56,105 nt of DNA. It comes from Candidatus Curtissbacteria bacterium RIFCSPLOWO2_12_FULL_41_16 (lineage in GTDB: Bacteria; Patescibacteriota; Microgenomatia; Curtissbacterales; GWA2-41-24). Shown here piece after piece: positions 1,062 through 55,984 of the stretch. The DNA is taken from the NCBI GenBank assembly GCA_001776545.1, contig MFBZ01000002.1, positions 1-56,105 on the forward strand. Reading direction: 5' to 3'. The first letter of the stretch is position 1, and each line of letters opens with the position of its first letter. The position numbers and the translations under genes are program-made. The notes beneath the pieces were generated by a model. It worked only from the letters and a program-made list of their open reading frames with translations. It did no database searches and was not told the DNA's origin.

Positions 1062-1711
1062 AGATAGTAAAATATTTTTTAATAATTTTAATTCCCCTGG
1101 TAATCATTTTAGGCAATTTTCAGTATTTAATCTTCAATCTTAAATTTTATAAGAATCTTTACAATCAAGCGGGAGTTTATCAGTCGTTCCCCGGGGGAGT
1201 GGTAGATGATGCTACGTATAATCTCCTTGGCTACTTTAGAGGAAAAAATAAACTCGATCACAATTTTTTCTCAAACCAGGCGATTTTGCACTTAAAAGAT
1301 GTTAAAGAAATAATAAATTTTACTTCTAGTCTTTTTTATTTATCCGCGGTTGCTGTTTTAGCTCTGTCTATTATTTTAATTGCCAGGAAGCAATCTAAAG
1401 CGTTAACATCCGCCCTTATTGTTTCATCAGTTATCACCATGATATTTATTATTTTGCTATCCATTCCTTTATTTTCAACATTTTCGTCCAACGGACGACC
1501 AGCCTTTGGCTGGGATTTTTTATTTACAAAATTTCATCAAGCGCTATTTAACAATGACCTCTGGCTTTTCTCGCCGGATGATAATTTAATAAGATTATTT
1601 CCCTCTGAGTTTTTCGTATTATTTGCCAATCAACTCGCAATGAATATACTAGTCACATCTGGGGTAATTATCATCAGTTCATTCCTGTTAAAAAAGAAAT
1701 TTTCAATTTGA
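1058..1711 (+). CDS. TIGR01906/DUF1461-family membrane protein, candidate lipoprotein intramolecular transacylase (Lit-like)
   Basis: 217 aa with N- and C-terminal TM helices. The segment FFSNQAILHLKDVKEII resembles the Fs..E..Hm.DVK signature of the DUF1461/Lit family. It sits immediately upstream of lgt. Confidence 0.55.
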   Translation: MKIVKYFLIILIPLVIILGNFQYLIFNLKFYKNLYNQAGVYQSFPGGVVDDATYNLLGYFRGKNKLDHNFFSNQAILHLKDVKEIINFTSSLFYLSAVAVLALSIILIARKQSKALTSALIVSSVITMIFIILLSIPLFSTFSSNGRPAFGWDFLFTKFHQALFNNDLWLFSPDDNLIRLFPSEFFVLFANQLAMNILVTSGVIIISSFLLKKKFSI

Positions 1712-1760
1712 AATTTGAAATTTTCATTGAAAATTGAAAAGTAAAAATTTAAAATTCGGA
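1705..1760 (+). repeat. period-7 degenerate tandem repeat filling the spacer upstream of lgt
   Basis: AATTTGA AATTTGA AATTTTC ATTGAAA ATTGAAA AGTAAAA ATTTAAA ATTCGGA in one register. It begins inside the TGA stop of the upstream gene and ends 1 nt before the lgt ATG. Confidence 0.75.
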
Positions 1761-14058: not shown

Positions 14059-14645
14059 AAAAGGAAGTACTCAAAAAAATTTTAAAAGTATTTTTGACAC
14101 TTCAGTGGGCCAAAGAACTTCCCCGCCAAGGATTTATCGCGCTCGGTTTTAAACGAAACGAAGCCGATTCGGTAGCGGCCCATTCATGGACCACGACAAT
14201 GCTGACTTACATGTTGGCAATGGAGATGGCGGGAGACGGCCAGAAGATTAACGTTGATAAAGCCATTAAAATGGCCCTTTTTCATGATATGGCAGAAACA
14301 ATAGTCGGTGATGTCGGAACCTTTGTGAAGGGGATGGCCAAAGGGGCCTTTGCGCCGATTGAGGAGGAAGGCCTCAAGTGGTTAGTTGCCAATCTTCCGT
14401 CTAGGAAGGAAATAACAGACCTTGTTAGTGAATATATGCGAAGGAAGACCCTGGAAGCAAGATTGGTAAAGGTTGCCGATAACTTGGATGCGCTGGCCCA
14501 GGCAAAAGGTGTGCCAGCCGCTGCCTCTGCGCTAAAATATTTTAAGGAAGTCTATCACATAACAAAAATACCCTGGCATAAAGAAGCGGTTGAGATGATT
14601 TTAAAAGATGAAGTGGTGCCGGAAAGGAGCTGGCAGAAGAAGTAA
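14055..14645 (+). CDS. HD-domain phosphohydrolase (YfbR-like)
   Basis: 196 aa with AAHSW...LFHDMAETIVGDV (H...HD...D). ATGA start/stop overlap with lysS. Confidence 0.75.
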   Translation: MKKEVLKKILKVFLTLQWAKELPRQGFIALGFKRNEADSVAAHSWTTTMLTYMLAMEMAGDGQKINVDKAIKMALFHDMAETIVGDVGTFVKGMAKGAFAPIEEEGLKWLVANLPSRKEITDLVSEYMRRKTLEARLVKVADNLDALAQAKGVPAAASALKYFKEVYHITKIPWHKEAVEMILKDEVVPERSWQKK

Positions 14646-14719
14646 ATAGTTAATCGTAAATCGTTAATGGGAAAACCCTGAAATCGCTATGAACGATAAA
14701 CTATAAACAATAAACGTCA
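14643..14719 (+). repeat. period-7 degenerate tandem repeat filling the HD-serS spacer
   Basis: Single register: TAAATAG TTAATCG TAAATCG TTAATGG ... AACGATA AACTATA AACAATA AACGTCA. Confidence 0.7.
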
Positions 14720-21498: not shown

Positions 21499-21592
21499 TT
21501 AAGAAGAATATTCTAATACTTTTTAGCCCCCAAGCCAACCTCCCCGAATTACAAAAAAGCCATTATATTTAATATAATGCTAGAAAAAGTCA

Positions 21593-25343: not shown

Positions 25344-25406
25344 ATTCTGTCTCTTGCAAATAGGATATCAGCCCGAACTCTGCTCCTCTGATATAATTCA
25401 ACTGCC

Positions 25407-26501: not shown

Positions 26502-26565
26502 CATCACCACGTTCTGACGACTTGCCCAATTTAAAGCTATATTGATATAATCAAGTGTAAAAGAT

Positions 26566-29913: not shown

Positions 29914-30780
29914 GTGCCCAAAAAAGTTGTCTATCTTTTTGCTCTTATTTTCTTTCTACTTTTTCATCCGTCAGCCTTTGCCGCAACTGTAGTTATCAAT
30001 GAATTTTTAGCCAACCAATCATCAGGTCAAGATGAATGGGTCGAATTTTACAATCCAGACCACCTTGATTTGGCTGAATACTGGATAGATGATGATACTG
30101 ATTTCGGCAGTGATTCAGGCAACAGTTCTAAAAAACAATTAACCGCCGTCAGCTTAAATGTTGCCAATTCGACATTTCCTTACGTTACCTTGAGTTCTTT
30201 AATGTTTAACGATACTTGCAGTTCTTCTTGCGATTATGTTGTTTTATTTTCTGCGGATGGCTCAATAATTGACCAGTTTCAATATACTTCAGAAATGATT
30301 GAACAAGAAGGCAAAACAATCGGTCGTTCACCAGATGGTACAGGGGATATGGTGATTTTAGCTTCCATGACCCAAGGAGCACCCAACAGTCAAGCTGAGC
30401 CTTCGCCCTCATCAATCCCAACCCCCACACCCACGCCTGCCCCAACCCCTACCCCCACCCCTACCAAATCTCCAACTCCTACTCCTAAAACCACCCCAAC
30501 ATCAATTTTGACAAAATCGCCGTCACCCACACCCAAAAATTCTCCTGCGGTTTTAGGAGAAACCCAAGATAGCTTGCAATCTCCAACCGAAGAATCTACC
30601 CCAAGTCCATCCGCAAATCCAACCAGTACATCACCTTCCAAAACCAAAATAGCAGCAATACTTACCGGCTCTGGAGCAATCTTGATTGGGTTCTCTGTCG
30701 GATTTTACTTATGGTATAACAAGGTCCTGGCCAGGAAAGAAGAAGATCAAAATCAGCCTGATGAAAAAGAATCAAACTAG
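29914..30780 (+). CDS. lamin-tail-domain (LTD) surface protein with PT-rich linker and C-terminal TM anchor
   Basis: 288 aa, GTG start, signal peptide. LTD motif VVINEFLANQSSGQDEWVEFYNP, PTPTPTPAPTPTPTPT linker, hydrophobic C-terminus followed by a basic stretch. Confidence 0.7.
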   Translation: MPKKVVYLFALIFFLLFHPSAFAATVVINEFLANQSSGQDEWVEFYNPDHLDLAEYWIDDDTDFGSDSGNSSKKQLTAVSLNVANSTFPYVTLSSLMFNDTCSSSCDYVVLFSADGSIIDQFQYTSEMIEQEGKTIGRSPDGTGDMVILASMTQGAPNSQAEPSPSSIPTPTPTPAPTPTPTPTKSPTPTPKTTPTSILTKSPSPTPKNSPAVLGETQDSLQSPTEESTPSPSANPTSTSPSKTKIAAILTGSGAILIGFSVGFYLWYNKVLARKEEDQNQPDEKESN

Positions 30781-33562: not shown

Positions 33563-34309
33563 AACTACGAGGTCCGACCTCGCAGTTACAGTAGTATAAT
33601 CAGATCATGCCTTCCAAACACTCAGTTAAATTATACATTGAGAACGGGATCTACCATGTTTACAACCGTGGTGTTGAAAAAAGAACTATCTTTCAAGATC
33701 ACGACTACAAAGTCTTCCTTCACTATTTGAAGCGCTATTTATCTGAGCCAAACAACGAGGTCGGACCTCGTTGGAAACTTCGGTGGAACCAAGGCCTCCA
33801 CGAGAAGTTGCATTTAATGGCATATTGCTTGATGCCGAATCATTTTCATCTGTTACTTAAACAGTTTTCAAAAGAAGCAATAACTACTCTCATGCGATGT
33901 CTTTCGAATTCGTACACCAAATATTTCAACGAAAAATATGATCGAGTAGGCCCCCTCTTCCAGGGGAAATTTAAGGCTGTTTTAGTTGAAAATGATAATT
34001 ATCTTTTGCACTTGACACGCTACATCCACCTGAATCCTATCAACCATCGAGAAAGTACTACGAGGTCCGACCTCGTAGTACTGGCAAAATTCAATTACTC
34101 AAGCTACGCCGATTACTTAGGAAAAAGGCATACTCAGTGGCTTAATGTTAAAGAGGTATTAAATTACTTCAATAACCCTACATCTCTCAATATCTATAAG
34201 AAACATTCGTATAAAGAATTCGTAGAAGATTTTGCTATTGATTCCGGTTCCGCACTTCAGGAACTAGTGATTGAATAGTAGCTACGAGAACTACGAGGTC
34301 CGACCTCGT
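33563..34309 (+). mobile_element. REP-RAYT unit: IS200-like tyrosine transposase gene flanked by and containing REP hairpins
   Basis: Hairpins at 33563-33587 (upstream), 33753-33773 and 34054-34082 (within the CDS) and 34293-34309 (downstream). All share ACGAGGTC-S-GACCTCGT, with CTAC/GTAG next to the stem. Confidence 0.8.
33607..34278 (+). CDS. REP-associated tyrosine transposase (RAYT, IS200/Y1 HUH family)
   Basis: 223 aa with YHVYNRG, HUH motif MPNHFHLLLKQ and catalytic Tyr block HLTRYIHLNP. Confidence 0.85.
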   Translation: MPSKHSVKLYIENGIYHVYNRGVEKRTIFQDHDYKVFLHYLKRYLSEPNNEVGPRWKLRWNQGLHEKLHLMAYCLMPNHFHLLLKQFSKEAITTLMRCLSNSYTKYFNEKYDRVGPLFQGKFKAVLVENDNYLLHLTRYIHLNPINHRESTTRSDLVVLAKFNYSSYADYLGKRHTQWLNVKEVLNYFNNPTSLNIYKKHSYKEFVEDFAIDSGSALQELVIE

Positions 34310-35025: not shown

Positions 35026-35561
35026 AATTTCCAGCTTATACCCGTCATTTTCTCAGCCTGTTTTTGATTATACTGGGGGCTGGGATTATGCTTTTTACTG
35101 CCATCAGCAAAAGCGCAGCCCAAGTTCTACCTCAAAACGAACCCCAGCAAACTCAATTCTTGGAAAAACCAGCAAAACTCTACATCCCGAGACTTGCCAA
35201 AATTCTCTATATTTCCGACGGTCAAGTAGTTGACAACCGCTGGACTATCTCCGAAACAGGGGTCTCCTATCTTACGACATCGGCAATTCCGGGCCAGGTT
35301 GGCAACAGTGTCATTTACGGCCACAATCGCAATGAAATTCTGGGAGATCTGCCTCAAGTCGTAGATGGCGATCCCATCTATGTAATTTTAGAAAGTGGTG
35401 ACTTTGTCAAATACCAAGTTGCCGAAACCAAAGTAATCCAGCCGTCCCAAGTCGAAATTTTAAATCAATCGGCAGATTCAAGACTAACGATTTACACCTG
35501 CACCGGCTTTTTAGATACTGCCCGATTTGTGGTTGTGGCCAGGCAAGTAGGTCTGATATAA
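34980..35561 (+). CDS. sortase (class uncertain)
   Basis: 193 aa with an N-terminal TM, His motif VIYGHN, catalytic Cys motif LTIYTCTG, and Arg in RFVVVAR. Confidence 0.85.
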   Translation: MASSKRTRKKSAKGLKFPAYTRHFLSLFLIILGAGIMLFTAISKSAAQVLPQNEPQQTQFLEKPAKLYIPRLAKILYISDGQVVDNRWTISETGVSYLTTSAIPGQVGNSVIYGHNRNEILGDLPQVVDGDPIYVILESGDFVKYQVAETKVIQPSQVEILNQSADSRLTIYTCTGFLDTARFVVVARQVGLI

Positions 35562-35570
35562 TGACTTTTA

Positions 35571-37163
35571 GTGAAAAAACTGCTCCCCGCCTTTCTCGCT
35601 TTTCTGCTAATCTTTTTTATCTCTCCTGTTTGGGCGCAAACGCCCCCATTTTCCGTCAACAACGCCAACCGAGTTCCTGGCCAAATTCTGGTTAAATTTA
35701 AAAGCGGGACTTCCCAGAGTTTTATCAACGAAAATCTAATCAGATTTAATGCCAGAATTGCCTCTCGGATTGAAAGATTAAACGTCTTAGCGCTTAATGT
35801 CCCAATTTCTCAAGAAGATGTTATAATTTCTGCCCTTTCCAAAATTCCCAGTGTCGAATTTGCCGAACCAGACTTTGTCGCCAAAGCCCTTACCGCAACT
35901 TCCGATCCGTCATTATCCAGCCAGTGGGGCATGTTTAAAGTTGTGGCAGCTGCCAATCCCGACCCCAGCGCTTGGAATATTACAATCGGCAGCGCAACTG
36001 CAAAAATTGCCGTTTTGGATACTGGTATCGATCAAGATCATGAAGATTTAGCTGCCAAAGTTGTCGCCAACCAAAACTTCACGTCAAGCCCAACCATTGA
36101 TGATCTCTATGGCCATGGTACCCATGTCGGCGGCATCGCTGCGGCCATTACCAATAACGCAACAGGAGTGGCCGGCCTTGGCTACAACTCCTCCCTGATG
36201 AACGTAAAGGTGCTGGACGATAGCGGTTCCGGTTATTATTCATGGATTGCCAATGGCATTATTTGGGCCACAGATAACGGTGCCAAAGTTATCAATATGA
36301 GTTTAGGCGGATCAAGCGGTTCGTCGACACTTCAAAACGCCGTTAATTACGCGGTCGCCAACGGGGTAGTTGTTGTGGCCGCAGCCGGCAATAGCGGCAA
36401 TTCGTCTCGAACCTATCCGGCCTATTATTCAAATGTCATCGCGACTGCTGCAACCGACTCAAATGACGTCAAAGCCGGTTGGTCAAGCTATGGCTCATGG
36501 GTAGATGTAGCCGCTCCCGGGGTTAACATCTATTCCACTTTCCCGAATCACCCGTATCAAATCAATAAGGCGCTAAGTTACGATTACGGTTCTGGAACTT
36601 CCATGGCCACGCCGCATGTTGCGGGTTTGGCTGCTCTTGTTTGGGCAACAGGAATTTGCGCAACCAACACCTGTGTCAGGGCACAAATTGAAAATAATGC
36701 CGATGCAATCACAGGCACTGGCACTTACTGGACTTATGGCCGCATCAATGCTTATAAATCAGTCGGCGGTACGTCGCCAAGTCCATCGCCATCGTCAACA
36801 CCTACTCCAACTCCCACACCCACTCCAACTCCAACACCGGTACCGGCGCTAACCATGCGTGTTTCCGATATTTCTATGTCGTATACAGCAATTTGGAAGT
36901 GGCGTAATGTTTACACCAAAGTCACGGTTTTGGACCAAAACAATAATCCCGTCTCTAGCGCCAATGTCTCACTTACAGTAACCCTACCATCCTCAAACAC
37001 AGCAACCAGTTCAGGATCAACAGGCAGCAATGGGACTATTACCTTCAAGGTAAGATCCAAAGAAACCGGCACTTACACATCAACCGTTATGGGCGTCACC
37101 AAGACAAACTATACTTACGATGCGGCAAGCTCCATCACAACTCAAACAGTGTTGGTCATTTGA
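35571..37163 (+). CDS. secreted subtilisin-like serine protease (S8) with I9-like propeptide, PT linker and C-terminal beta domain
   Basis: 530 aa, GTG start, signal peptide ending VWA. Catalytic triad blocks VLDTGID, HGTHVGG, GTSMATPHVAG. PSPSPSSTPTPTPTPTPTP linker. Confidence 0.92.
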   Translation: MKKLLPAFLAFLLIFFISPVWAQTPPFSVNNANRVPGQILVKFKSGTSQSFINENLIRFNARIASRIERLNVLALNVPISQEDVIISALSKIPSVEFAEPDFVAKALTATSDPSLSSQWGMFKVVAAANPDPSAWNITIGSATAKIAVLDTGIDQDHEDLAAKVVANQNFTSSPTIDDLYGHGTHVGGIAAAITNNATGVAGLGYNSSLMNVKVLDDSGSGYYSWIANGIIWATDNGAKVINMSLGGSSGSSTLQNAVNYAVANGVVVVAAAGNSGNSSRTYPAYYSNVIATAATDSNDVKAGWSSYGSWVDVAAPGVNIYSTFPNHPYQINKALSYDYGSGTSMATPHVAGLAALVWATGICATNTCVRAQIENNADAITGTGTYWTYGRINAYKSVGGTSPSPSPSSTPTPTPTPTPTPTPVPALTMRVSDISMSYTAIWKWRNVYTKVTVLDQNNNPVSSANVSLTVTLPSSNTATSSGSTGSNGTITFKVRSKETGTYTSTVMGVTKTNYTYDAASSITTQTVLVI

Positions 37164-40681: not shown

Positions 40682-40716
40682 ATAACAATTGACATTTGAC
40701 AATTAACAATTGACAG
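40682..40716 (+). repeat. period-7 repeat ATAACAA TTGACAT TTGACAA TTAACAA TTGACAG
   Basis: Five units in one register, including three TTGACA hexamers. Confidence 0.75.
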
Positions 40717-40775: not shown

Positions 40776-43049
40776 TTGATAAGATTTGTAAAAAAATTAA
40801 GAAAAGTTTTTATAAGCTGGGTGCTTGTTTTTGCACTTGTTTTGGGAACGCCTACTTTTGTATTTTCGCAGACTGCACCGGATCCCCTTACACCTCCTGA
40901 TCCGATAACTGCACCAGAACCATTGAATATTTCGCCGCCTCCTGCACCGACACCGCCGCCAGCGCCCACACCTCCGCCTCCAATAGTATTTCCATCGCCA
41001 AGCCCATTTCCGAGCCCCTCACCCATAGTTGCGCCTTCGCCATTGCCGACTACTCAGCAAACTTCAGGGTCAACAGACCAAAACCAAGGTTCTACTACCC
41101 AAACCAGAAATAGGAACAGCACAAACGAGGGCACAACCGCAAACAGCACGCCCACGGTTTCCGCGGACACAGGCCACAGTTCTTCGGGTAACACTGGCGG
41201 CAATACAGCCATTGCAACAGGCAACGCAACTGCAGCAGGTGTCATTACATCCACTGCAAATGGTGCGGTAGTAACAGCAGGCAGCGGTTCCTCATGCAGT
41301 GCCTGTGTTCCTTCGGCATCTGCGACAAACAGCGGAAACGGTGCCGATTCGACCAATAATTCTTCCGCTTCCACTTCAAATAATACGGATGTGGATATCA
41401 ACAACACCGCGGTTATTGTTAACAATGCTAATTTTGAAGCCGACAGCGGCCACAACAACACTTCTTACAATACGGGCGGGGACTCCGATATCATTTCAGG
41501 CGATGCCAATGTTTCGGCAACCGTAATTACCAACGCAAATTCCGTTAATTTGGGCATTTATGAATTTGATGTTGTTGATAACCACACAGGGGATATAATC
41601 TTGGGGCAAAATCTGGAAAATTGCGTAAACTGTACCTCCGGTTCAACTTCGGCAGAAAACTCGGGGAACGGTGCCGATTCTACAAATGATGCAACGGCTT
41701 CTTCAAATTCGACCACAACCGAAACCATAAACAATGATGCGGATGTTGTAAACAATATTAATATTGATGCCGACAGCGGTCACAATAAGGCAAATTACAA
41801 TACAAACGGCGATTCCAACATTACGACCGGTGATGCCAATGTTGTTGCCAATGTTGTAAACGCAGTCAACACAGTTGTAGATGGCGTTGTTTATACAGTC
41901 AATATCTTCGGCGATTTGGTCGGTAATATAATTTTGCCCGACCAAAACTCTCAGGCCGACAGTGGTTGCGACAATTGCTGTGGTGGCGATGTCTTGGCGT
42001 CCAACACAAACAATGGTGCAGACAGCACCAATACAACGACTGCCTCAGTATCTTCGACTTCAACAACAACTCAAACTAACAATGCCACTATCAATAACAA
42101 TTTGAACCTTGATGCCAATTCCGGAGGGAATCAGACAAGCTTTAACACAGGTGGCGATAATTTGGTTGAGACAGGGGATGTTTCAGTTGATGCCAATGTG
42201 ATTAACGTTGCCAACGTCAATGTTGCAGGAACAGCTTGTGACTCACCTGTTTATATGGTCTTTATTAACGACCCAAATGGTAACTGGCAAGGGCAAATCG
42301 CCGGAGCAGGTCCTGGAACTTATTTCTATACTTCGGATGGCCTCATTTATGTGGTTGGCGAAAATGGTGATTTAATCGCCGTTAATTCCGGCAATGGTGC
42401 GGGTTCAACAAGCACTTCGACTGCCACACAGTCCAGCGATACCAACATTACTCAGAACAATACCGGCACGATCACCAACAACATCAATATCGATGCCAAT
42501 ACCGGTGATAACCAGGCTTCTTACAACACGAATGGTGACTCAAGCGTTAAAACCGGTGATGCCAATATCTTTGTCAATGTCGTAAACTTTATTAACTCCA
42601 ATTTCTCCGGCCGCAAAATTGTCATGACTTTAGTTAACGTCTTTGGTTCTTGGCTTGGCCATTTCGTGCCGCCGGGATTTAGCGCGCCGACAAACCAGGC
42701 GCAGGGGGATAATCCTGACACATCCAGCCAATCACAATCAGGCGGTCAGCAAGGATCAGGCGGATCCGGTGGTTCATCCTCATCAACTTCGTCAGGATCC
42801 GGCAGTCAGCCAATAGTTGGTAGTATTGCCTCCGGCGCAAGTTCCGTCTTTACCGGACTGGTTGGTGGCGCAAGAACAGAAAAAATTGTTCAAGACGACA
42901 ACTCCATAGCCCTTGGTCTATCATCCAATGGTCAGGACAACCAAACACAAGAAGATTCATCACTTGGTTTCAAACTATTATTGTTTGCAATTCCGCTAAT
43001 TTTTATCGGGTTCTTTTTAAGAAGACTACTCGCGCGTTCTCAATCCTGA
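40776..43049 (+). CDS. large secreted/anchored protein: Pro-rich N-region, at least 5 Asn/Thr/Gly-rich modules, Ser/Gly-rich stalk, C-terminal TM plus basic tail
   Basis: 757 aa, TTG start, signal peptide ending VFSQ. Repeated cores such as ADSGHNKANYNTNGDSNITTGDANVVANVVN. CxxC-type junctions (SCSAC, NCVNC, GCDNCC). C-terminus FKLLLFAIPLIFIGFFLRRLLAR. Confidence 0.75.
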   Translation: MIRFVKKLRKVFISWVLVFALVLGTPTFVFSQTAPDPLTPPDPITAPEPLNISPPPAPTPPPAPTPPPPIVFPSPSPFPSPSPIVAPSPLPTTQQTSGSTDQNQGSTTQTRNRNSTNEGTTANSTPTVSADTGHSSSGNTGGNTAIATGNATAAGVITSTANGAVVTAGSGSSCSACVPSASATNSGNGADSTNNSSASTSNNTDVDINNTAVIVNNANFEADSGHNNTSYNTGGDSDIISGDANVSATVITNANSVNLGIYEFDVVDNHTGDIILGQNLENCVNCTSGSTSAENSGNGADSTNDATASSNSTTTETINNDADVVNNINIDADSGHNKANYNTNGDSNITTGDANVVANVVNAVNTVVDGVVYTVNIFGDLVGNIILPDQNSQADSGCDNCCGGDVLASNTNNGADSTNTTTASVSSTSTTTQTNNATINNNLNLDANSGGNQTSFNTGGDNLVETGDVSVDANVINVANVNVAGTACDSPVYMVFINDPNGNWQGQIAGAGPGTYFYTSDGLIYVVGENGDLIAVNSGNGAGSTSTSTATQSSDTNITQNNTGTITNNINIDANTGDNQASYNTNGDSSVKTGDANIFVNVVNFINSNFSGRKIVMTLVNVFGSWLGHFVPPGFSAPTNQAQGDNPDTSSQSQSGGQQGSGGSGGSSSSTSSGSGSQPIVGSIASGASSVFTGLVGGARTEKIVQDDNSIALGLSSNGQDNQTQEDSSLGFKLLLFAIPLIFIGFFLRRLLARSQS

Positions 43050-50790: not shown

Positions 50791-50848
50791 TTGATCTATT
50801 TTCACACACTTTGTCCGTCTTGACCTCCAAGATATAAACCCTTAAAAT
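50791..50848 (+). promoter_or_regulatory. promoter (TTGACC-17-TAAAAT) with conserved upstream box
   Basis: Hexamers at 50820-50825 and 50843-50848. The box TTGATCTATTTTCACACACTTTGTCCGTC is shared with 53371-53400. Confidence 0.55.
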
Positions 50849-50903: not shown

Positions 50904-50952
50904 CATCCTTTATCCCTCATCCTTCATAATTCAGACTTCATACTTCATAATC
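50904..50952 (+). repeat. period-7 pyrimidine-rich repeat in the 5' UTR of the 50977 gene
   Basis: CATCCTT TATCCCT CATCCTT CATAATT CAGACTT CATACTT CATAATC in one register, directly upstream of the SD AAGGAAGGAGGTG. Confidence 0.8.
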
Positions 50953-50976: not shown

Positions 50977-51321
50977 ATGAAAAGATTGTTAACCAGAGTT
51001 GGCGTCGGGGTTACCGCAGCTTCAATGTTTGCGGCAGCTTTTGCTCCGGCCGCCGCTTTTGCTAATGGTGGTGGTAACAGTTGCGAGATTAAAAACAACG
51101 GTGCCTTTTCCCGCAACCGCTGCCGGATTACCGAAATAAATGTCCAGGTAACCAGACAGAACAACCGGGCCAGCATTTGGAACGGCGTTTTGGTGATTGC
51201 CAATACCGGCGGAAATGAGGCCAACGGAAATACCGGCGGCAATGTCGACGTCGACAGTGGCAATGCCACGGTTAATGTCAGAATTACCAATACCGTTAAT
51301 CAAGACAATACTGCTAATTAG
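50977..51321 (+). CDS. small secreted single-module Asn/Gly-rich protein
   Basis: 114 aa from ATG 50977, with SD GGAGGTG 8 nt upstream. Signal peptide ending AFA. Module ...VLVIANTGGNEANGNTGGNVDVDSGNATVNVRITN. The ORF-track start 50878 is rejected. Confidence 0.7.
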   Translation: MKRLLTRVGVGVTAASMFAAAFAPAAAFANGGGNSCEIKNNGAFSRNRCRITEINVQVTRQNNRASIWNGVLVIANTGGNEANGNTGGNVDVDSGNATVNVRITNTVNQDNTAN

Positions 51322-51333
51322 TATCGTCTTTCC

Positions 51334-51383
51334 AAAAAAAAGCCCTGCTCTCGGAATCTATTTCTTAAGGCCGGGCTTTTTTT
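51334..51383 (+). terminator. possible bidirectional terminator (A-run, AGCCC...GGGCT, T-run)
   Basis: AAAAAAAAGCCC ... GGGCTTTTTTT. The loop is large (about 27 nt), so this is a weak call. Confidence 0.35.
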
Positions 51384-51499: not shown

Positions 51500-52225
51500 T
51501 TATGGTGTCGGCGAAATCTCAGGTGAGGAAAAAGGGGAAGGCGACAAACTTGCCGAGGGAGTTGCCGAACCCGTTGCTATCCGCTCCAAAAGCCCGATTG
51601 CGCGGCCGCCAATCACATGAACCTTCTTGGCAATTAAATTATCACCAGACCAGTTACCAACAGCCGTCACCCGGTCTCCAGCTTTGATATTGCCAATGGT
51701 TGCCGCTTCCAGACCTTTTATTTTGATGATTGTCCCCTCAACCACCTCAACATTGTATCTCGGGTTATCCTTGATCGGATGTGAAACAACCAGTATATTG
51801 CCGTTAATCTCCCGTACTAGTCCATAAACAGCCCTTCTTCTTGTTTCAGGCTTTGCTGACTCGGTTGCCGATTTAGGCTTGACCAAGATCAAATTGGCCG
51901 AGCCGGTGGCATTTGGGTTGGCAAATGTCGCGATGCGGTCGTCTTTCTTAAGTTGAAAAGGAGTCAGTTTTTTCCCGCTTGGCTTCTCGATAATAGAAGT
52001 ACCCTGACCGGTTTTAACTTCTATTTTTTTACCCTTGTGTTCTATCTCGACCTTCCCCGGCTTAACATCATTTACTCTTCCTACATCGACATCAACCTCA
52101 TGCTTTTTTGTCTGTCCGGAGGCCGTATCCTTTACGCCTAAAACTTGCGTATAGGCCAAAGCGATAGATGGTGTAATCAAAACTGTTAAAGTAATTAAAA
52201 CGATAGCAAAAACTTTATCCTTCAT
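51500..52225 (-). CDS. secreted protein with DUF5666-like beta domains
   Basis: 241 aa with a signal peptide. Repeated G.V..v.g..l.v...-type segments ([15 protein letters not shown]...[23 protein letters not shown]). Tentative family. Confidence 0.5.
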
Positions 52226-52231
52226 CCTTAT

Positions 52232-52371
52232 TACTTATCACTTATTACTTATCACTTATCACTTATCACTTCTCACTTATTACTTCTCACTTATCACTTC
52301 TCACTTATCACTTCTCACTTATCACTTCTCACTTATCACTTCTCACTTATCACTTCTCACTTATCACTTAT
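52232..52371. repeat. 20-unit heptanucleotide tandem array (YACTTMT; CACTTATCACTTCT 14-mers)
   Basis: The units were counted one by one. Units 9-18 strictly alternate CACTTAT/CACTTCT. The array runs from 7 nt upstream of the ATG at 52225 (minus strand) into the TAA stop at 52368-52370 of the upstream gene. Confidence 0.97.
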
Positions 52372-53126
52372 AGCTCTTCTTCCCTCACATAAACCACCGA
52401 CCTGGTTTCGCTTGTTTCCTCATTATTGTCCCCAAAAGCCGTGATCGTGATGTCATTCGGTCCCTCGTCCAAAGTCAAAGTCCCGGAAAAATCGCCATTA
52501 TCGTCACTCTCATATGTTTCTTCGCTGCTCTCGGTATAAGCAGTCACCATGCTATCGGGGCTTGTTTTGCCTTCGATCTGAATCTGCGCCGAAGTTGTCG
52601 CCATTTGATCTTGCGGAGCCGCTATAATAAGCGATGCTTTCGGGCGTTCAACTCTGGTGGTAATTTCTTCCGGCACCGCTTTATTTCTTTGGCTCCACCA
52701 CCAATAGCCGCCTCCGGCAACTGCAGCTATCAAAATAATGAATGCCAATACCACCCCTGCCACCTTTGTTTTAGACGAGCCTTGCCCTTGCGTGTTTTCA
52801 GTGGCAACAGGCGGCGCTTCGTCAACCGGTATTTTGCTGGCCAGTTCCCCAGCAGGCGCTGACGGGGCCGATTCGGTCTGAGACTCACGGTCGAAGGCTT
52901 GCACCGTATCGCCTGTTGCGATAACCGCCGATTGTCCTGAGGGTTCGTCCGAGGGAGTCGAACCGCTGGCCGTCGTGTTGGGTTCGGGTGTAATGGGTGG
53001 TGTATCCGGCTGAGTGGGGATTTCCTCTGCCGGCGGACTCAGTGGTGATTGCGGTAAAGTTGGCTCAGTTTTTGTGGAATCATCACCCATGTAGTTAGAA
53101 TACTTGAGGTGAAAGTTGATTGTCAA
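52368..53126 (-). CDS. Pro/Thr/Ser-rich protein with central TM helix and C-terminal beta domain
   Basis: 252 aa from TTG 53126, with an alternative ATG at 53090. [25 protein letters not shown]. No family recognised. Confidence 0.5.
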
Positions 53127-53370: not shown

Positions 53371-53429
53371 TTGATCCATTTTCACACCACTTCGTCCCAA
53401 TTGACACGTAGTTTTCATGGGTCTAATCT
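53371..53429 (+). promoter_or_regulatory. promoter (TTGACA-17-TAATCT) with conserved upstream box
   Basis: Hexamers at 53401-53406 and 53424-53429. The box TTGATCCATTTTCACACCACTTCGTCCC resembles the one at 50791-50819. Confidence 0.55.
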
Positions 53430-53476
53430 GGATTGAACACCAATTTCAGTCTGCATGCAAGTTACTGTCCGACTGT

Positions 53477-54661
53477 ATGCAGAACATATCTGCCCGACTA
53501 AACTCAAAAGTCCTTCTTTCAATAGCAACTATTTTTGCGGCCGCGGCCATCGTCCTCGGCGCTACTTTTGCTTTTTTCTCAGATACGGAAACATCCAAAG
53601 ACAATACATTTGTAGCCGGTGCTTTGGATCTTAAAGTAAACGGAGAAGATGATCCGTCACAGATCGTAAATATCACAGACCTGAAACCAGGCGACGATTA
53701 TCTTATCGATAAAACTTTATTGGTAGATTTTAACCCTGCCAAAATTTATGTCCATATCAAAGATATTGTTAATAATCAAGGCACGCAAACCGAGCCAGAG
53801 AATCTAGAGGAAGACAATACGCCTAAAAGCGACATCCAGAATTTCCTCACCTACGATCTTAAAGTTCAAGATGAAGTCATTATTTCGTTCCAAAACAATG
53901 TTCTCTTACCGGATGCTGTTTCCTGCTGGATCCCCCTCGGCCAAATTCCCGGTAATCAAAATGTTACCGTCACCCAAAGCTTTCACTTTGACGAAGACGT
54001 AACCAATTGGGCACAAGGTGACATCTTAACTTTCACCGAAGAATTCTTGGCTCTTCAAATTAACGACCCTACAATTCCCACAACCGGAGAAAATGTATGG
54101 AACCCCGACACAAAAAGCTGCGAACCCCCGCCTGTTATTGTCTCATGTGAACCAAATGACGCAATCTTTGCAAGCGGGTTTAGTAATGTTGCACAAGGCC
54201 TTCGAAAAGATGGCACTGCGGTTTTAGCCGATCGATCAGATCCAAACGACGCCACTGGAGCACCGCAAAGTCTTGGTAATCCAGACGACACGCCAGTTGT
54301 TGCTGGTAGTTTTTTCAGTTTAGGGTTCCCGCATGCTAATAACGGAAATGTTCCTGGCACTTTAGAACTTTCATTTAGCGAACCTTTCTTCCCGAATCCG
54401 AGCGGTTCCGATTTGCAAGTATTTGAGGTAACCGGAGGAACCTATCCCGAGGAGAGGGTTAGGGTGGAAGTAAGCCCAGACGGAACAACTTGGACGCTGG
54501 TTGCTGCTTCTGCTCTTCGCGACGCCCCAATTGAAATAAGCCCATTGACTTCTGCTCAATTTATCCGATTAACAGAAGCAAGCAATATCGCACCTTTCGA
54601 ATCAACTGCGGACGGATACGATCTTGACGCGGTTAAAGCATTTTGCACAGAAGCGGATTAA
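53477..54661 (+). CDS. TasA/camelysin (M73)-family protein with SipW-type signal peptide and ~190-aa C-terminal extension domain
   Basis: The start at ATG 53477 lies downstream of the predicted promoter. N-terminus KVLLSIATIFAAAAIVLGATFAFFSDTETSKDNTFVAGALDL is the SipW-dependent signal/TasA signature. The core ends ...QGDILTFTEEFLALQ. Confidence 0.75.
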   Translation: MQNISARLNSKVLLSIATIFAAAAIVLGATFAFFSDTETSKDNTFVAGALDLKVNGEDDPSQIVNITDLKPGDDYLIDKTLLVDFNPAKIYVHIKDIVNNQGTQTEPENLEEDNTPKSDIQNFLTYDLKVQDEVIISFQNNVLLPDAVSCWIPLGQIPGNQNVTVTQSFHFDEDVTNWAQGDILTFTEEFLALQINDPTIPTTGENVWNPDTKSCEPPPVIVSCEPNDAIFASGFSNVAQGLRKDGTAVLADRSDPNDATGAPQSLGNPDDTPVVAGSFFSLGFPHANNGNVPGTLELSFSEPFFPNPSGSDLQVFEVTGGTYPEERVRVEVSPDGTTWTLVAASALRDAPIEISPLTSAQFIRLTEASNIAPFESTADGYDLDAVKAFCTEAD

Positions 54662-54722
54662 GGATGGGATTTAGGATGAAGGATAAAGCCCAGTACCTTT
54701 TAGGCTTAATTACTAAACAAAC

Positions 54723-55037
54723 ATGTATTTTGTCTATCTTTTACAAAGTTTAAAAGACAACAAGTTTTATATTGGCCAAACAGAGAACGTCGTTCAGAGA
54801 TTAGCGATTCATAATTCTGGACAGGTCATATCGACAAAATCAAGGAGACCTTTCAGATTGGTTGGATATAAAACTTTTGATTTCCGGAATGAAGCACGTT
54901 GGTTTGAATATAACTTAAAAAATCACAGTGATAAAAAGAGAAAGTTTATAAATGAATTACGAAATAAAGGCCTCCGGCCACTCGGGTCTTGGAGAAAGGT
55001 CTCAGACCCGGAGGGCCTCCGGCCCGGAGGGAGGTGA
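54723..55037 (+). CDS. GIY-YIG domain protein (UPF0213/YhbQ-like)
   Basis: 104 aa with MYFVYLLQSLKDNKFYIGQTENVVQRLAIHNSG. The last ~25 codons are encoded by GC-rich palindromes. Confidence 0.8.
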   Translation: MYFVYLLQSLKDNKFYIGQTENVVQRLAIHNSGQVISTKSRRPFRLVGYKTFDFRNEARWFEYNLKNHSDKKRKFINELRNKGLRPLGSWRKVSDPEGLRPGGR

Positions 55038-55045
55038 AATAAAAA

Positions 55046-55984
55046 ATGGGAATAAACATAAATTCAAAAATCCTTTTGTCAGTCGCATCAATTGCTGCAG
55101 CAGCGGCTTTAATAGTCGGCGCAACTGTAGCCTTTTTTAGCGACACCGAGACATCAACCGGCAACACATTCGCCGCTGGCGAACTCGATCTTTTGGTAGA
55201 CAGCGAATGTCACTACTACCGAGTTGATACCAATCCAAGTCCATCACCATCACCAAGGTTACCGGGTTATGTAGATGTAGGTTGTGGAAACAATGGGACT
55301 TGGACAGAATCAGATCTTGTTCCAGGAGTCCACAAGTTCTTTAACTTTAACGATGTGAAACCTGGAGACAGAGGAGAGGATACAATCAGTCTCCATGTTG
55401 TAGACAACGATGCATGGGCATGGTTCTCGGTTACTGAAGAAGGGGACAGCGATGTCACTTGTACAGAGCCGGAAACTGAAAGTACTGATCCACAATGTGT
55501 TAATGCATCACCAGGCCCAAGCCTTACAGACGGTGAACTTCAAGAAGCTCTGGACTTTAATGTTTGGTTAGATCAAGGAGTAAAACCTGGCTTCCAAGGG
55601 AAAAGCAACGATGTAGGCGAAGGTGACAATATCTTTAATCAGGGTGATATCCAATTAGCTACGCCAGGGCCAATCGATGATCCGTCAGAACAATACAACC
55701 TTTGGCAGATTTTAGCAGGTGTGAGAGCAGGCCTAAATACAGCCTGTGATGGAGCTGACGACGATCCAGATGGTGACGGAGTAACAGCAGGCGCAGTTGG
55801 TCTTTGTCAAGGTTTACCAGACGACGGTCATCTAGTTGGAAGCACGACCTACTACTTTGGTGTAGGTTGGGAATTGCCTAGCGATACGGGTAACGAAGTT
55901 CAATCCGACAGTTTCGTGGCGGATATGGAGTTTAAGGTAGAACAATACCGCAATAACCCAAGTCCAAGCCCGTTCCCGATTTAG
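55046..55984 (+). CDS. TasA/camelysin (M73)-family protein with SipW-type signal peptide
   Basis: 312 aa, SD GGAGGTG 9 nt upstream. N-terminus KILLSVASIAAAAALIVGATVAFFSDTETSTGNTFAAGELDL, NDVKPGD block, and C-terminal QSDSFVADMEFKVEQ. Confidence 0.8.
   Translation: MGININSKILLSVASIAAAAALIVGATVAFFSDTETSTGNTFAAGELDLLVDSECHYYRVDTNPSPSPSPRLPGYVDVGCGNNGTWTESDLVPGVHKFFNFNDVKPGDRGEDTISLHVVDNDAWAWFSVTEEGDSDVTCTEPETESTDPQCVNASPGPSLTDGELQEALDFNVWLDQGVKPGFQGKSNDVGEGDNIFNQGDIQLATPGPIDDPSEQYNLWQILAGVRAGLNTACDGADDDPDGDGVTAGAVGLCQGLPDDGHLVGSTTYYFGVGWELPSDTGNEVQSDSFVADMEFKVEQYRNNPSPSPFPI

Follow-up and report, generated by a model that had tools for sequence, protein, structure and literature searches.

What fills the boundary between two genes with 142 nt of a seven-nucleotide repeat, and does the repeat do anything there? 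The question is raised by a stretch of 56,105 nt, referred to here as the window, in which the gap between two minus-strand genes is occupied from stop codon to start codon by a tandem heptanucleotide array (52232-52371). From the structure of the array, its counterparts in related genomes and its alleles in public assemblies, we consider it most probable (roughly 0.7) that the array is a heptanucleotide microsatellite, born by slippage where the stop of one gene meets the start of the next in a conserved operon of two genes for secreted or membrane-anchored proteins. The junction is composed of the following features.

52368-53090, minus strand: gene 1, 240 aa from an ATG at 53090, whose N-terminal region is disordered and which has one transmembrane helix and, at the C-terminus, a Glucodextran_B-like domain
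52230-52371, minus strand: core heptanucleotide array of 20 units, in mRNA register from 52369 to 52230, with the unit order TGTGTGTGTGTGaGTTTaTa
52286-52369, minus strand: perfect 84-nt block (AAGTGAT AAGTGAG)x6, the youngest part of the array and specific to the dominant allele
52209-52229, minus strand: three degenerate in-register units (AAGGATG AAGGATA AAGTTTT), which include the start codon of gene 2 (ATG, 52225-52223) and the codons for its first residues (MKDKV)
51500-52225, minus strand: gene 2, 241 aa, with a signal peptide, a DUF5666-like core and a Ser/Pro-rich tail

Cutting the plus strand of 52232-52371 every 7 nt yielded 20 head-to-tail units, all 20 of which fitted YACTTMT, with the types CACTTAT, CACTTCT, TACTTAT and TACTTCT. 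The unit types of the minus (mRNA) strand were AAGTGAT, AAGTGAG and AAGTAAT, arranged as CTAT-(AAGTGAT AAGTGAG)x6-AAGTAAT-AAGTGAG-AAGTGATx3-AAGTAAT-AAGTGAT-AAGTAAT. Tandem Repeats Finder detected the same region with period 7 (22.6 copies, 52215-52371, score 221) and with period 14 (9.8 copies, 52233-52369, 96% matches, score 246). The unit-by-unit cut thus bears out the count of 20 units made in the first-pass annotation, which had been drawn up from the sequence. The 14-mer AAGTGAKAAGTGAK, with at most one mismatch, had 19 overlapping matches in the window, all 19 within the array; shuffled controls gave a mean of 0.09 matches, and none of 100 shuffles reached 19. The array is therefore a microsatellite in the ordinary sense, that is, contiguous copies of a short (1-9 nt) unit far beyond chance. 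Five perfect 14-mers had been reported earlier: the five consecutive copies of CACTTATCACTTCT are there, but a sixth copy in the same register lies at 52260-52273. Since the 84-nt block of six 14-mers is perfect, it represents the most recent growth, in steps of 14 nt.

The array extends from the stop of gene 1 to the start of gene 2. The TAA of gene 1 (52370-52368) lies within the first array unit, and the intercistronic spacer from this stop to the ATG of gene 2 measures 142 nt in the window. The open reading frame (ORF) positions confirmed both gene boundaries as first annotated (TAA at 52368-52370, next ATG at 52225), whereas the distance between the last YACTTMT unit and the ATG is 6 nt (ATAAGG), not the 7 nt given before. 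The 7-nt register runs on past the array, and the ATG of gene 2 and the codons after it accordingly fall within degenerate units. C is absent from the mRNA strand of the array; stop codons occur on it in all three frames, as the first-pass annotation had stated.

Its proposal that two secreted or surface proteins flank the array also agrees with our predictions, namely the signal peptide of gene 2 and the transmembrane helix and Glucodextran_B-like domain of gene 1. The DUF5666 signal of gene 2 was weak (8 of 12 family members), and no relative of gene 2 with a solved structure was found. When the genome collection was scanned with the gene 2 family, only three distant relatives came up, with 34-36% identity (Roizmanbacteria, Gottesmanbacteria and a Clostridia metagenome-assembled genome); this result supports a Microgenomates affiliation of the host only loosely. 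The Roizmanbacteria and Gottesmanbacteria genomes are the sole named relatives of the gene pair. Two features bear on transcription of the pair.

53097-53126, minus strand: promoter-like site TTGACA-18-TATTCT, a consensus match only (10 of 12 positions), ending 7 nt before the ATG of gene 1
51334-51383, minus strand: hairpin with a flanking A-run and U-run, a predicted fold some 115 nt past the stop of gene 2

Because the promoter-like site ends only 7 nt from the ATG of gene 1, the mRNA of the gene 1-gene 2 operon is probably leaderless or short-leadered. The hairpin is a probable (bidirectional) intrinsic terminator of the two-gene operon, judging from its predicted fold. No promoter-like or terminator-like site was found in or beside the array, and a promoter or terminator inside the array was rejected as a candidate, with promoter-like matches of the region at chance level (4 versus 2.5 expected). 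Given the promoter-like site before gene 1, no terminator-like site between the genes and the hairpin after gene 2, the two genes are most likely still co-transcribed as one transcript, in which the array would be intercistronic RNA. The minimum free energy of the array RNA was weaker than that of shuffled sequences (z-score +1.66), and the centroid structure left the array unpaired. C-free RNA is a poor loading site for Rho, and the untranslated spacer would therefore not necessarily cause polarity.

How gene 2 would be translated from such an RNA depends on the initiation signals of the host. Only AAGG abuts the ATG of gene 2, as pointed out in the first-pass annotation, which took it for a possible Shine-Dalgarno (SD) sequence. 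The weakness of this SD is not unusual, because most genes in the window have none. Many genes have a -10 box right in front of the start, and initiation without an SD on open RNA is probably the norm in this organism. Pairing of GUGAU with the 3' tail of 16S rRNA, by which the units might act as repeated weak SD-like sites, was also considered; the window contains no 16S gene. A TATAAT-like -10 box 6-12 nt upstream of the start, with no SD, was observed at many genes (for example 25380-25406, 26540-26565, 33585-33606, 35550-35570, 21570-21592 and 53091-53126), which suggests that leaderless or very short-leader mRNAs are common in the host. Few genes (50977, 55046, 39297 and 45481) had a strong GGAGGTGA-type SD.

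What stood at this junction before the array? In six related lineages (P0002, P0003, P0005, P0015, P0016 and P0018), the Glucodextran_B-like gene and the homologue of gene 2 overlap by 4 nt, ATGA or GTGA, as in ...gaattATGA... and ...ttGTGA.... The homologues were 53-69% identical to gene 2, and the coding ends at the junction were conserved, with MKxK at the start of gene 2 and EEL* at the end of gene 1; the MKxK N-terminus is ancestral. Removal of the array from the window restored GAGCT-ATGA-AGGATAAAG. In the closest relative, L017 (69% identity), the junction reads cttAAGTGATAAGTAtt, including AAGTGATAAGTA, which equals two units of the window and contains the GTG start and the TGA stop. 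In L159 it reads ttgTAAGTGAGcaac, including TAAGTGAG. The seed TAAGTGA is present at the junction in both of these relatives. From these results we conclude that the array grew out of the sequence of the junction itself; it originated locally from a proto-repeat and was not inserted as a mobile element. On reading the sequence we noted neither terminal inverted repeats nor a transposase; no dedicated repeat search was run. The long array was absent from all relatives compared, and the expansion is therefore recent.

Heptamers of other sequence are found at the same junction elsewhere. In the P0004 lineage (L157/L158), a 59-nt spacer (L157 2001-2059) consists of CATTTGA CAATTGA CATTTGA CAGCTGA (consensus CAWTTGA), and in the P0007 lineage (L159), a 41-nt spacer (L159 415-455) consists of CAACTAG CAATTAG CAACTAG CGACTAG (consensus CAAYTAG). 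The P0006 lineage has a gap of 73 nt, known by its length. The neighbour-joining tree placed (window, P0002), with P0003, sister to (P0004, (P0006, P0007)), and all outgroups showed the overlap. Unrelated arrays at one junction, together with this tree, indicate that heptamer spacers arose there independently at least twice and probably three times; the alternative would be gain followed by loss. The ACAWTTG unit of L157, which contains repeated TTGACA hexamers, is also the unit family of an array elsewhere in the window (40683-40716).

We looked up public assemblies by the exact gene 1 and gene 2 proteins to compare alleles of the array. Seven further contigs (L003-L005, L142, L143, L145 and L146) carried the 142-nt spacer unchanged, and that of L001 differed by one base. 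The same-allele contigs come from NCBI genomes (GCA_001774835.1, GCA_001775075.1), JGI assemblies and k141 ENA assemblies of different samples, and the flanks of these loci were 99.5-99.9% identical to the window with zero gaps over 14 kb. A second allele, bridged from gene 1 to gene 2, was found in L007: its spacer has 107 nt and 15 units in the order TaTTGTaTTMTGTTa, where M is AAGGATG. Other unit orders again were seen in L147, from the same sample as L007 (ERZ27254759), and in L006, from another run; both contigs break off inside the array and have in common with the main allele only the seven 3' units (GTTTaTa). The two different partial arrays in sample ERZ27254759 (L007 and L147) hint at within-sample heterogeneity. 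In the scaffolds L002 and L144 the array is interrupted by N gaps, and the short contigs L148 and L149 end in it. A deletion of gene 2 in L144 was considered and rejected, the gap being a run of N in the scaffold.

As a control, the 4-unit arrays before serS (14646-14718) were identical in all four contigs checked, and 20 more contigs were reported as similar places. Since the long array varies while its flanks and the serS control stay constant, it varies far more than any other site of the region, at the level of contigs rather than reads. Copy number and arrangement thus differ between close genomes with constant flanks. This supports the earlier suggestion that a repeat of such length is prone to slippage: the variants L007 (15 units), L147 and L006 (other orders) have flanks about 99.9% identical, with no indel in 10-14 kb. 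The first-pass annotation had also named two signs of a recent neutral expansion, a lack of length polymorphism and absence from relatives; the array is indeed absent from the relatives, yet it is polymorphic.

Is the array peculiar to this junction, or does it belong to a wider pattern? The window was scanned for tandem runs with at least 80% self-match. Six runs had period 7, and all six lay in the intergenic 8% of the window; periods 4, 5 and 8-11 gave no runs, and periods 6 and 12 gave coding repeats only. The arrays away from the junction are listed below.

1696-1756, plus strand: array GAAATTT/TCAATTT/AAATTGA, spanning the stop of a Lit-like gene and ending 5 nt before the start of lgt
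14641-14716, plus strand: two short arrays, GTAAATM/GTTAATS and CNATAAA, filling the 73-nt gap from the stop of an HD-domain gene to the start of serS
40683-40716, plus strand: array ACAATTG/ACATTTG, of the same unit family as the P0004 (L157) junction
50904-50951, plus strand: array CATCCTT.../CTTCATA, in the 5' leader of a 114-aa secreted-protein gene at 50977

Three gaps, before lgt, before serS and between genes 1 and 2, are filled with heptamers from stop to start, and in two of the three cases the next gene is a housekeeping gene. The units differ between the arrays of the window and their strand sense is mixed; at 50904-50951 the pyrimidine-rich strand is the sense strand, opposite to the main array. 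AAGTGAK itself forms an array at a single locus of the 56-kb window. With six intergenic period-7 runs, the first-pass view of the long array as the extreme member of a period-7 spacer phenomenon holds. Outside the window, at least 120 metagenome contigs, of 21-72% G+C, contained (AAGTGAK)3, and 660 kb of AAGTGAK-carrying metagenome contigs contained 114 other period-7 runs versus at most 24 for any other period from 4 to 13. AAGTGAK was rejected as a special widespread element: viral contigs contained 28 stretches of it, versus 17, 24 and 56 for three composition-matched permuted heptamers.

Further repeats were observed in the window. Heptamers of the AAGGATG/AAGGATA type directly follow the stop of a camelysin-like gene (TAAGGATGGGATTTAGGATGAAGGATAAAG, 54659-54690) and occur in reverse orientation in the leader of the gene at 50977 (50904-50925). 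C-rich repeats of period 6/12/18 (CAACCC, CAACTC, CCGCCGCC...) lie inside ORFs at 30413-30465, 36796-36838 and 40933-40981. Apart from the period-7 arrays, these are the sole tandem runs of the window; from their composition, they probably encode Pro/Thr-rich linkers of exported proteins.

Heptameric repeats have long been described in other bacteria. According to the account in PMC4692102, they are over-represented in bacterial intergenic DNA (Mrazek, Guo & Shah 2007), with GGGAATC in Xanthomonas and GGGGAYT in Nostoc as examples. The arrays described here resemble them in intergenic confinement, in the excess of period 7 and in the variation of length and sequence between close relatives at the same position. 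They differ in that the host is a small-genome Microgenomates-type bacterium and in that the array can be followed back to its beginnings in a stop/start overlap; in contrast to the repeats of Xanthomonas and Nostoc, the units are A/G/T-rich and unable to form G-quadruplexes. Our literature search for heptamer repeats in Microgenomates-type bacteria found no report. The short tandemly repeated repetitive (STRR) sequences of cyanobacteria (Mazel et al. 1990, as summarized in PMC4692102) likewise comprise several tandem heptamers in the non-coding DNA of one genome, but there a few fixed units recur at many loci each and the phylum is different; here every array has its own unit, and AAGTGAK is confined to one locus of the window.

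A parallel in position is given by the TAACTGA repeats of marine Beggiatoaceae, cyanobacteria and Bacteroidetes (MacGregor 2015, PMC4679880). Those repeats also end a few nucleotides before the start, in the place of the ribosome-binding site, carry stop codons in each unit and precede housekeeping genes as well. In the window, the forward-oriented repeats end 6 nt before an SD-poor start. The TAACTGA repeats, however, are built of a single unit conserved across the genome, with 2-6 copies at each site, whereas here many unit types occur, those of the long array being AAGTGAT, AAGTGAG and AAGTAAT, and 20 copies are reached.

Taken together, the array may have arisen and acted as follows. The seed TAAGTGA at the ancestral overlap would have undergone slipped-strand expansion to 20 units in the lineage of the window, the latest step being growth of the 14-mer to the perfect 84-nt core. 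The operon would still form one transcript, with the array as a 142-nt, C-free, unstructured and stop-rich intercistronic RNA. Translationally coupled gene pairs with a -4 overlap (ATGA) have been studied elsewhere (PMC6728339, PMC10666635). The orthologous pair in the six relatives is arranged in this way, and the array unit repeats the GUGA motif, but in the window the overlap is replaced by the spacer. Coupling by termination and reinitiation needs overlaps and is nearly gone at a spacing of about 20 nt in Escherichia coli and Haloferax reporters (PMC10666635, PMC6728339). Because 142 nt is far beyond this distance, gene 2 should be uncoupled, and the array has very likely abolished the ancestral translational coupling. 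Initiation at gene 2 would then be de novo and SD-poor, on an open leader, and the ratio of gene 2 to gene 1 would follow the length of the array. We judge that the expansion came mainly from a lineage-wide bias towards heptamer slippage and that any tuning of expression is a by-product, although adaptive tuning by the array is possible. The first-pass annotation had proposed a tuning role. Its premise is sound, in that the array occupies a position relevant to coupling, as the overlap in six lineages shows, but nothing indicates a selected regulatory role.

Several points weigh against this account. We infer, rather than observe, both co-transcription and the effect on translation of gene 2. 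The polymorphism is based on assembled contigs and not on reads; the contigs ending inside the array (L147 and L006) could carry graph errors, and a variant allele is bridged from flank to flank only in L007. The dominant allele is identical across many samples, and hence the mutation rate is not extreme. Finally, a heptamer spacer at one junction in three lineages could mean selection for uncoupling rather than a bias of mutation alone.

The last point leads to an explanation that we regard as unlikely, namely that the array is a contingency locus or rheostat, in which selected changes of unit number tune the secreted gene 2 protein relative to gene 1. Its placement between two exported-protein genes, the several length and order alleles in near-identical genomes and the independent heptamer spacers in three lineages at one junction are all in its favour. 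A precedent exists in the (ATCTTTC)n repeats upstream of hmw1A and hmw2A of Haemophilus influenzae, where a variable 7-nt repeat likewise precedes a gene for a surface or exported protein; hmw expression depends on the repeat count, that of hmw1A being inversely proportional to the transcribed heptamer repeat (PMC12721329, PMC8262952). The array, lying between genes for a membrane-anchored and a signal-peptide protein, is placed where its unit number could alter expression of an exported protein. However, the hmw repeats lie in a 5' untranslated region and pair with a G-rich region into a long hairpin that is cut by RNase III, whereas our array is intercistronic, its effect on expression is conjectural, and its repeats have no hairpin partner, the RNA being C-free and predicted to be unpaired. 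Moreover, heptamer arrays of the window also precede the housekeeping genes lgt and serS and are therefore not specific to surface genes, a single allele dominates many samples, and the absence of the array from all relatives means that there has been no long-term maintenance.

An improbable alternative is that the repeat itself relays ribosomes. The GUGA of each unit would create overlapping five-codon ORFs that hand ribosomes on every 14 nt, so that coupling is kept but attenuated and the number of steps sets the ratio of the two products. The dominant allele indeed offers nine consecutive steps, six of them -4 overlaps, from the UAA of gene 1 to 8 nt past the AUG of gene 2. The first GUG directly follows that UAA, and the mini-ORFs (VISEK*, VRSDK*) end in a UGA overlapping the next GUG. 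Five steps in L007 end 5 nt before the AUG, GUGA is also the junction in the relatives L015 and L017, and the -4 geometry supports termination-reinitiation (PMC6728339). This geometry is, however, automatic for any heptamer containing NUGA, so that selection is not needed to explain it. AAGUAAU units break the chain and require jumps of +3 nt, the junction arrays of L157 and L159 give no continuous chain, the product of nine sub-unit efficiencies would leave little output, and we found no experimental precedent. If such a relay did exist, gain or loss of 14-nt steps would set the stoichiometry of two secreted partners in discrete decrements.

We give very little credence to the idea that the AAGTGAK repeats are multimeric sites for a DNA- or RNA-binding regulator. 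Binding of this kind has been proposed for the TAACTGA repeats and shown for ToxR at the TTTTGAT repeats of ctxAB, and 20 near-identical sites at regular spacing, as well as the metagenome contigs carrying (AAGTGAK)3, would suit such a regulator. Those 120 contigs also gave a crude sense-orientation excess of about 3:1 between co-directional ORFs, on which we did not rely because ORF calling is biased: the antisense strand of AAGTGAG has no stops, which inflates ORFs, and GTG starts occur inside the arrays. AAGTGAK is nowhere else in the window, the orthologous junctions carry unrelated units, the permuted control units are equally or more frequent, and the other arrays of the window have different units and mixed strand sense. 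Lastly, that an assembler collapsed or inflated the repeat is hardly credible, for although N gaps (L002, L144) and contig breaks (L006, L147-L149) fall in the array, the same spacer recurs in the seven further contigs and, with its one base change, in L001, from different samples and assemblers, and the longest perfect stretch of 84 nt is shorter than typical 150-nt reads and the 141-nt k-mer.

The surroundings of the operon are rich in genes for exported proteins. Two camelysin/TasA-like (Peptidase_M73) genes with SipW-type signal peptides (53417-54661 and 55046-55984) are separated by a GIY-YIG nuclease gene (54723-55037), and LTD-domain proteins follow beyond the end of the window (L001 3341-6137). 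The GIY-YIG gene was considered as a strain-specific insertion and rejected, since BLAST alignments were gap-free and the gene was merely uncalled in the L001-L003 records. On the plus strand, a shared motif, TTTTCACAC(C)ACTTYGTCC followed by TTGAC, was observed at 50799-50816 and 53379-53397, with none expected by chance. The two copies precede genes for exported proteins, namely the 114-aa gene at 50977 and the camelysin-like one at 53417, and the motif is possibly the site of a common regulator overlapping the -35 box.

Two families of small palindromes were also observed in the window. The 9-nt palindrome GGTCSGACC had nine copies versus 0.17 expected (29760, 29806, 33571, 33759, 34064, 34297, 53148, 53190 and 53228). 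Seven of the nine were intergenic, often in longer hairpins (ACGAGGTCCGACCTCG), and three lay just upstream of the gene 1-gene 2 operon; it is a repetitive extragenic palindromic (REP)-like element. The second, CACCTCCGAGG, had seven copies versus 0 expected, mostly as inverted pairs 12-36 nt apart (18866/18910, 32515/32538, 38179 and 53296/53343).

The array alone reveals no new regulatory mechanism. It extends the long-noted excess of 7-nt repeats in bacterial intergenic DNA to an uncultivated Microgenomates-type bacterium of the candidate phyla radiation, apparently from groundwater, and provides a clear picture of before and after, from a conserved ATGA/GTGA overlap to a 142-nt spacer through expansion of sequence already present there. 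A natural series of alleles, with about 13, 15 and 20 units, could be used to relate spacer length to coupled expression. Heptamer slippage may be a routine maker of intercistronic spacers that breaks coupling in compact genomes and, if this is true more broadly, heptamer expansion would be a recurrent means of uncoupling overlapping genes in small genomes.

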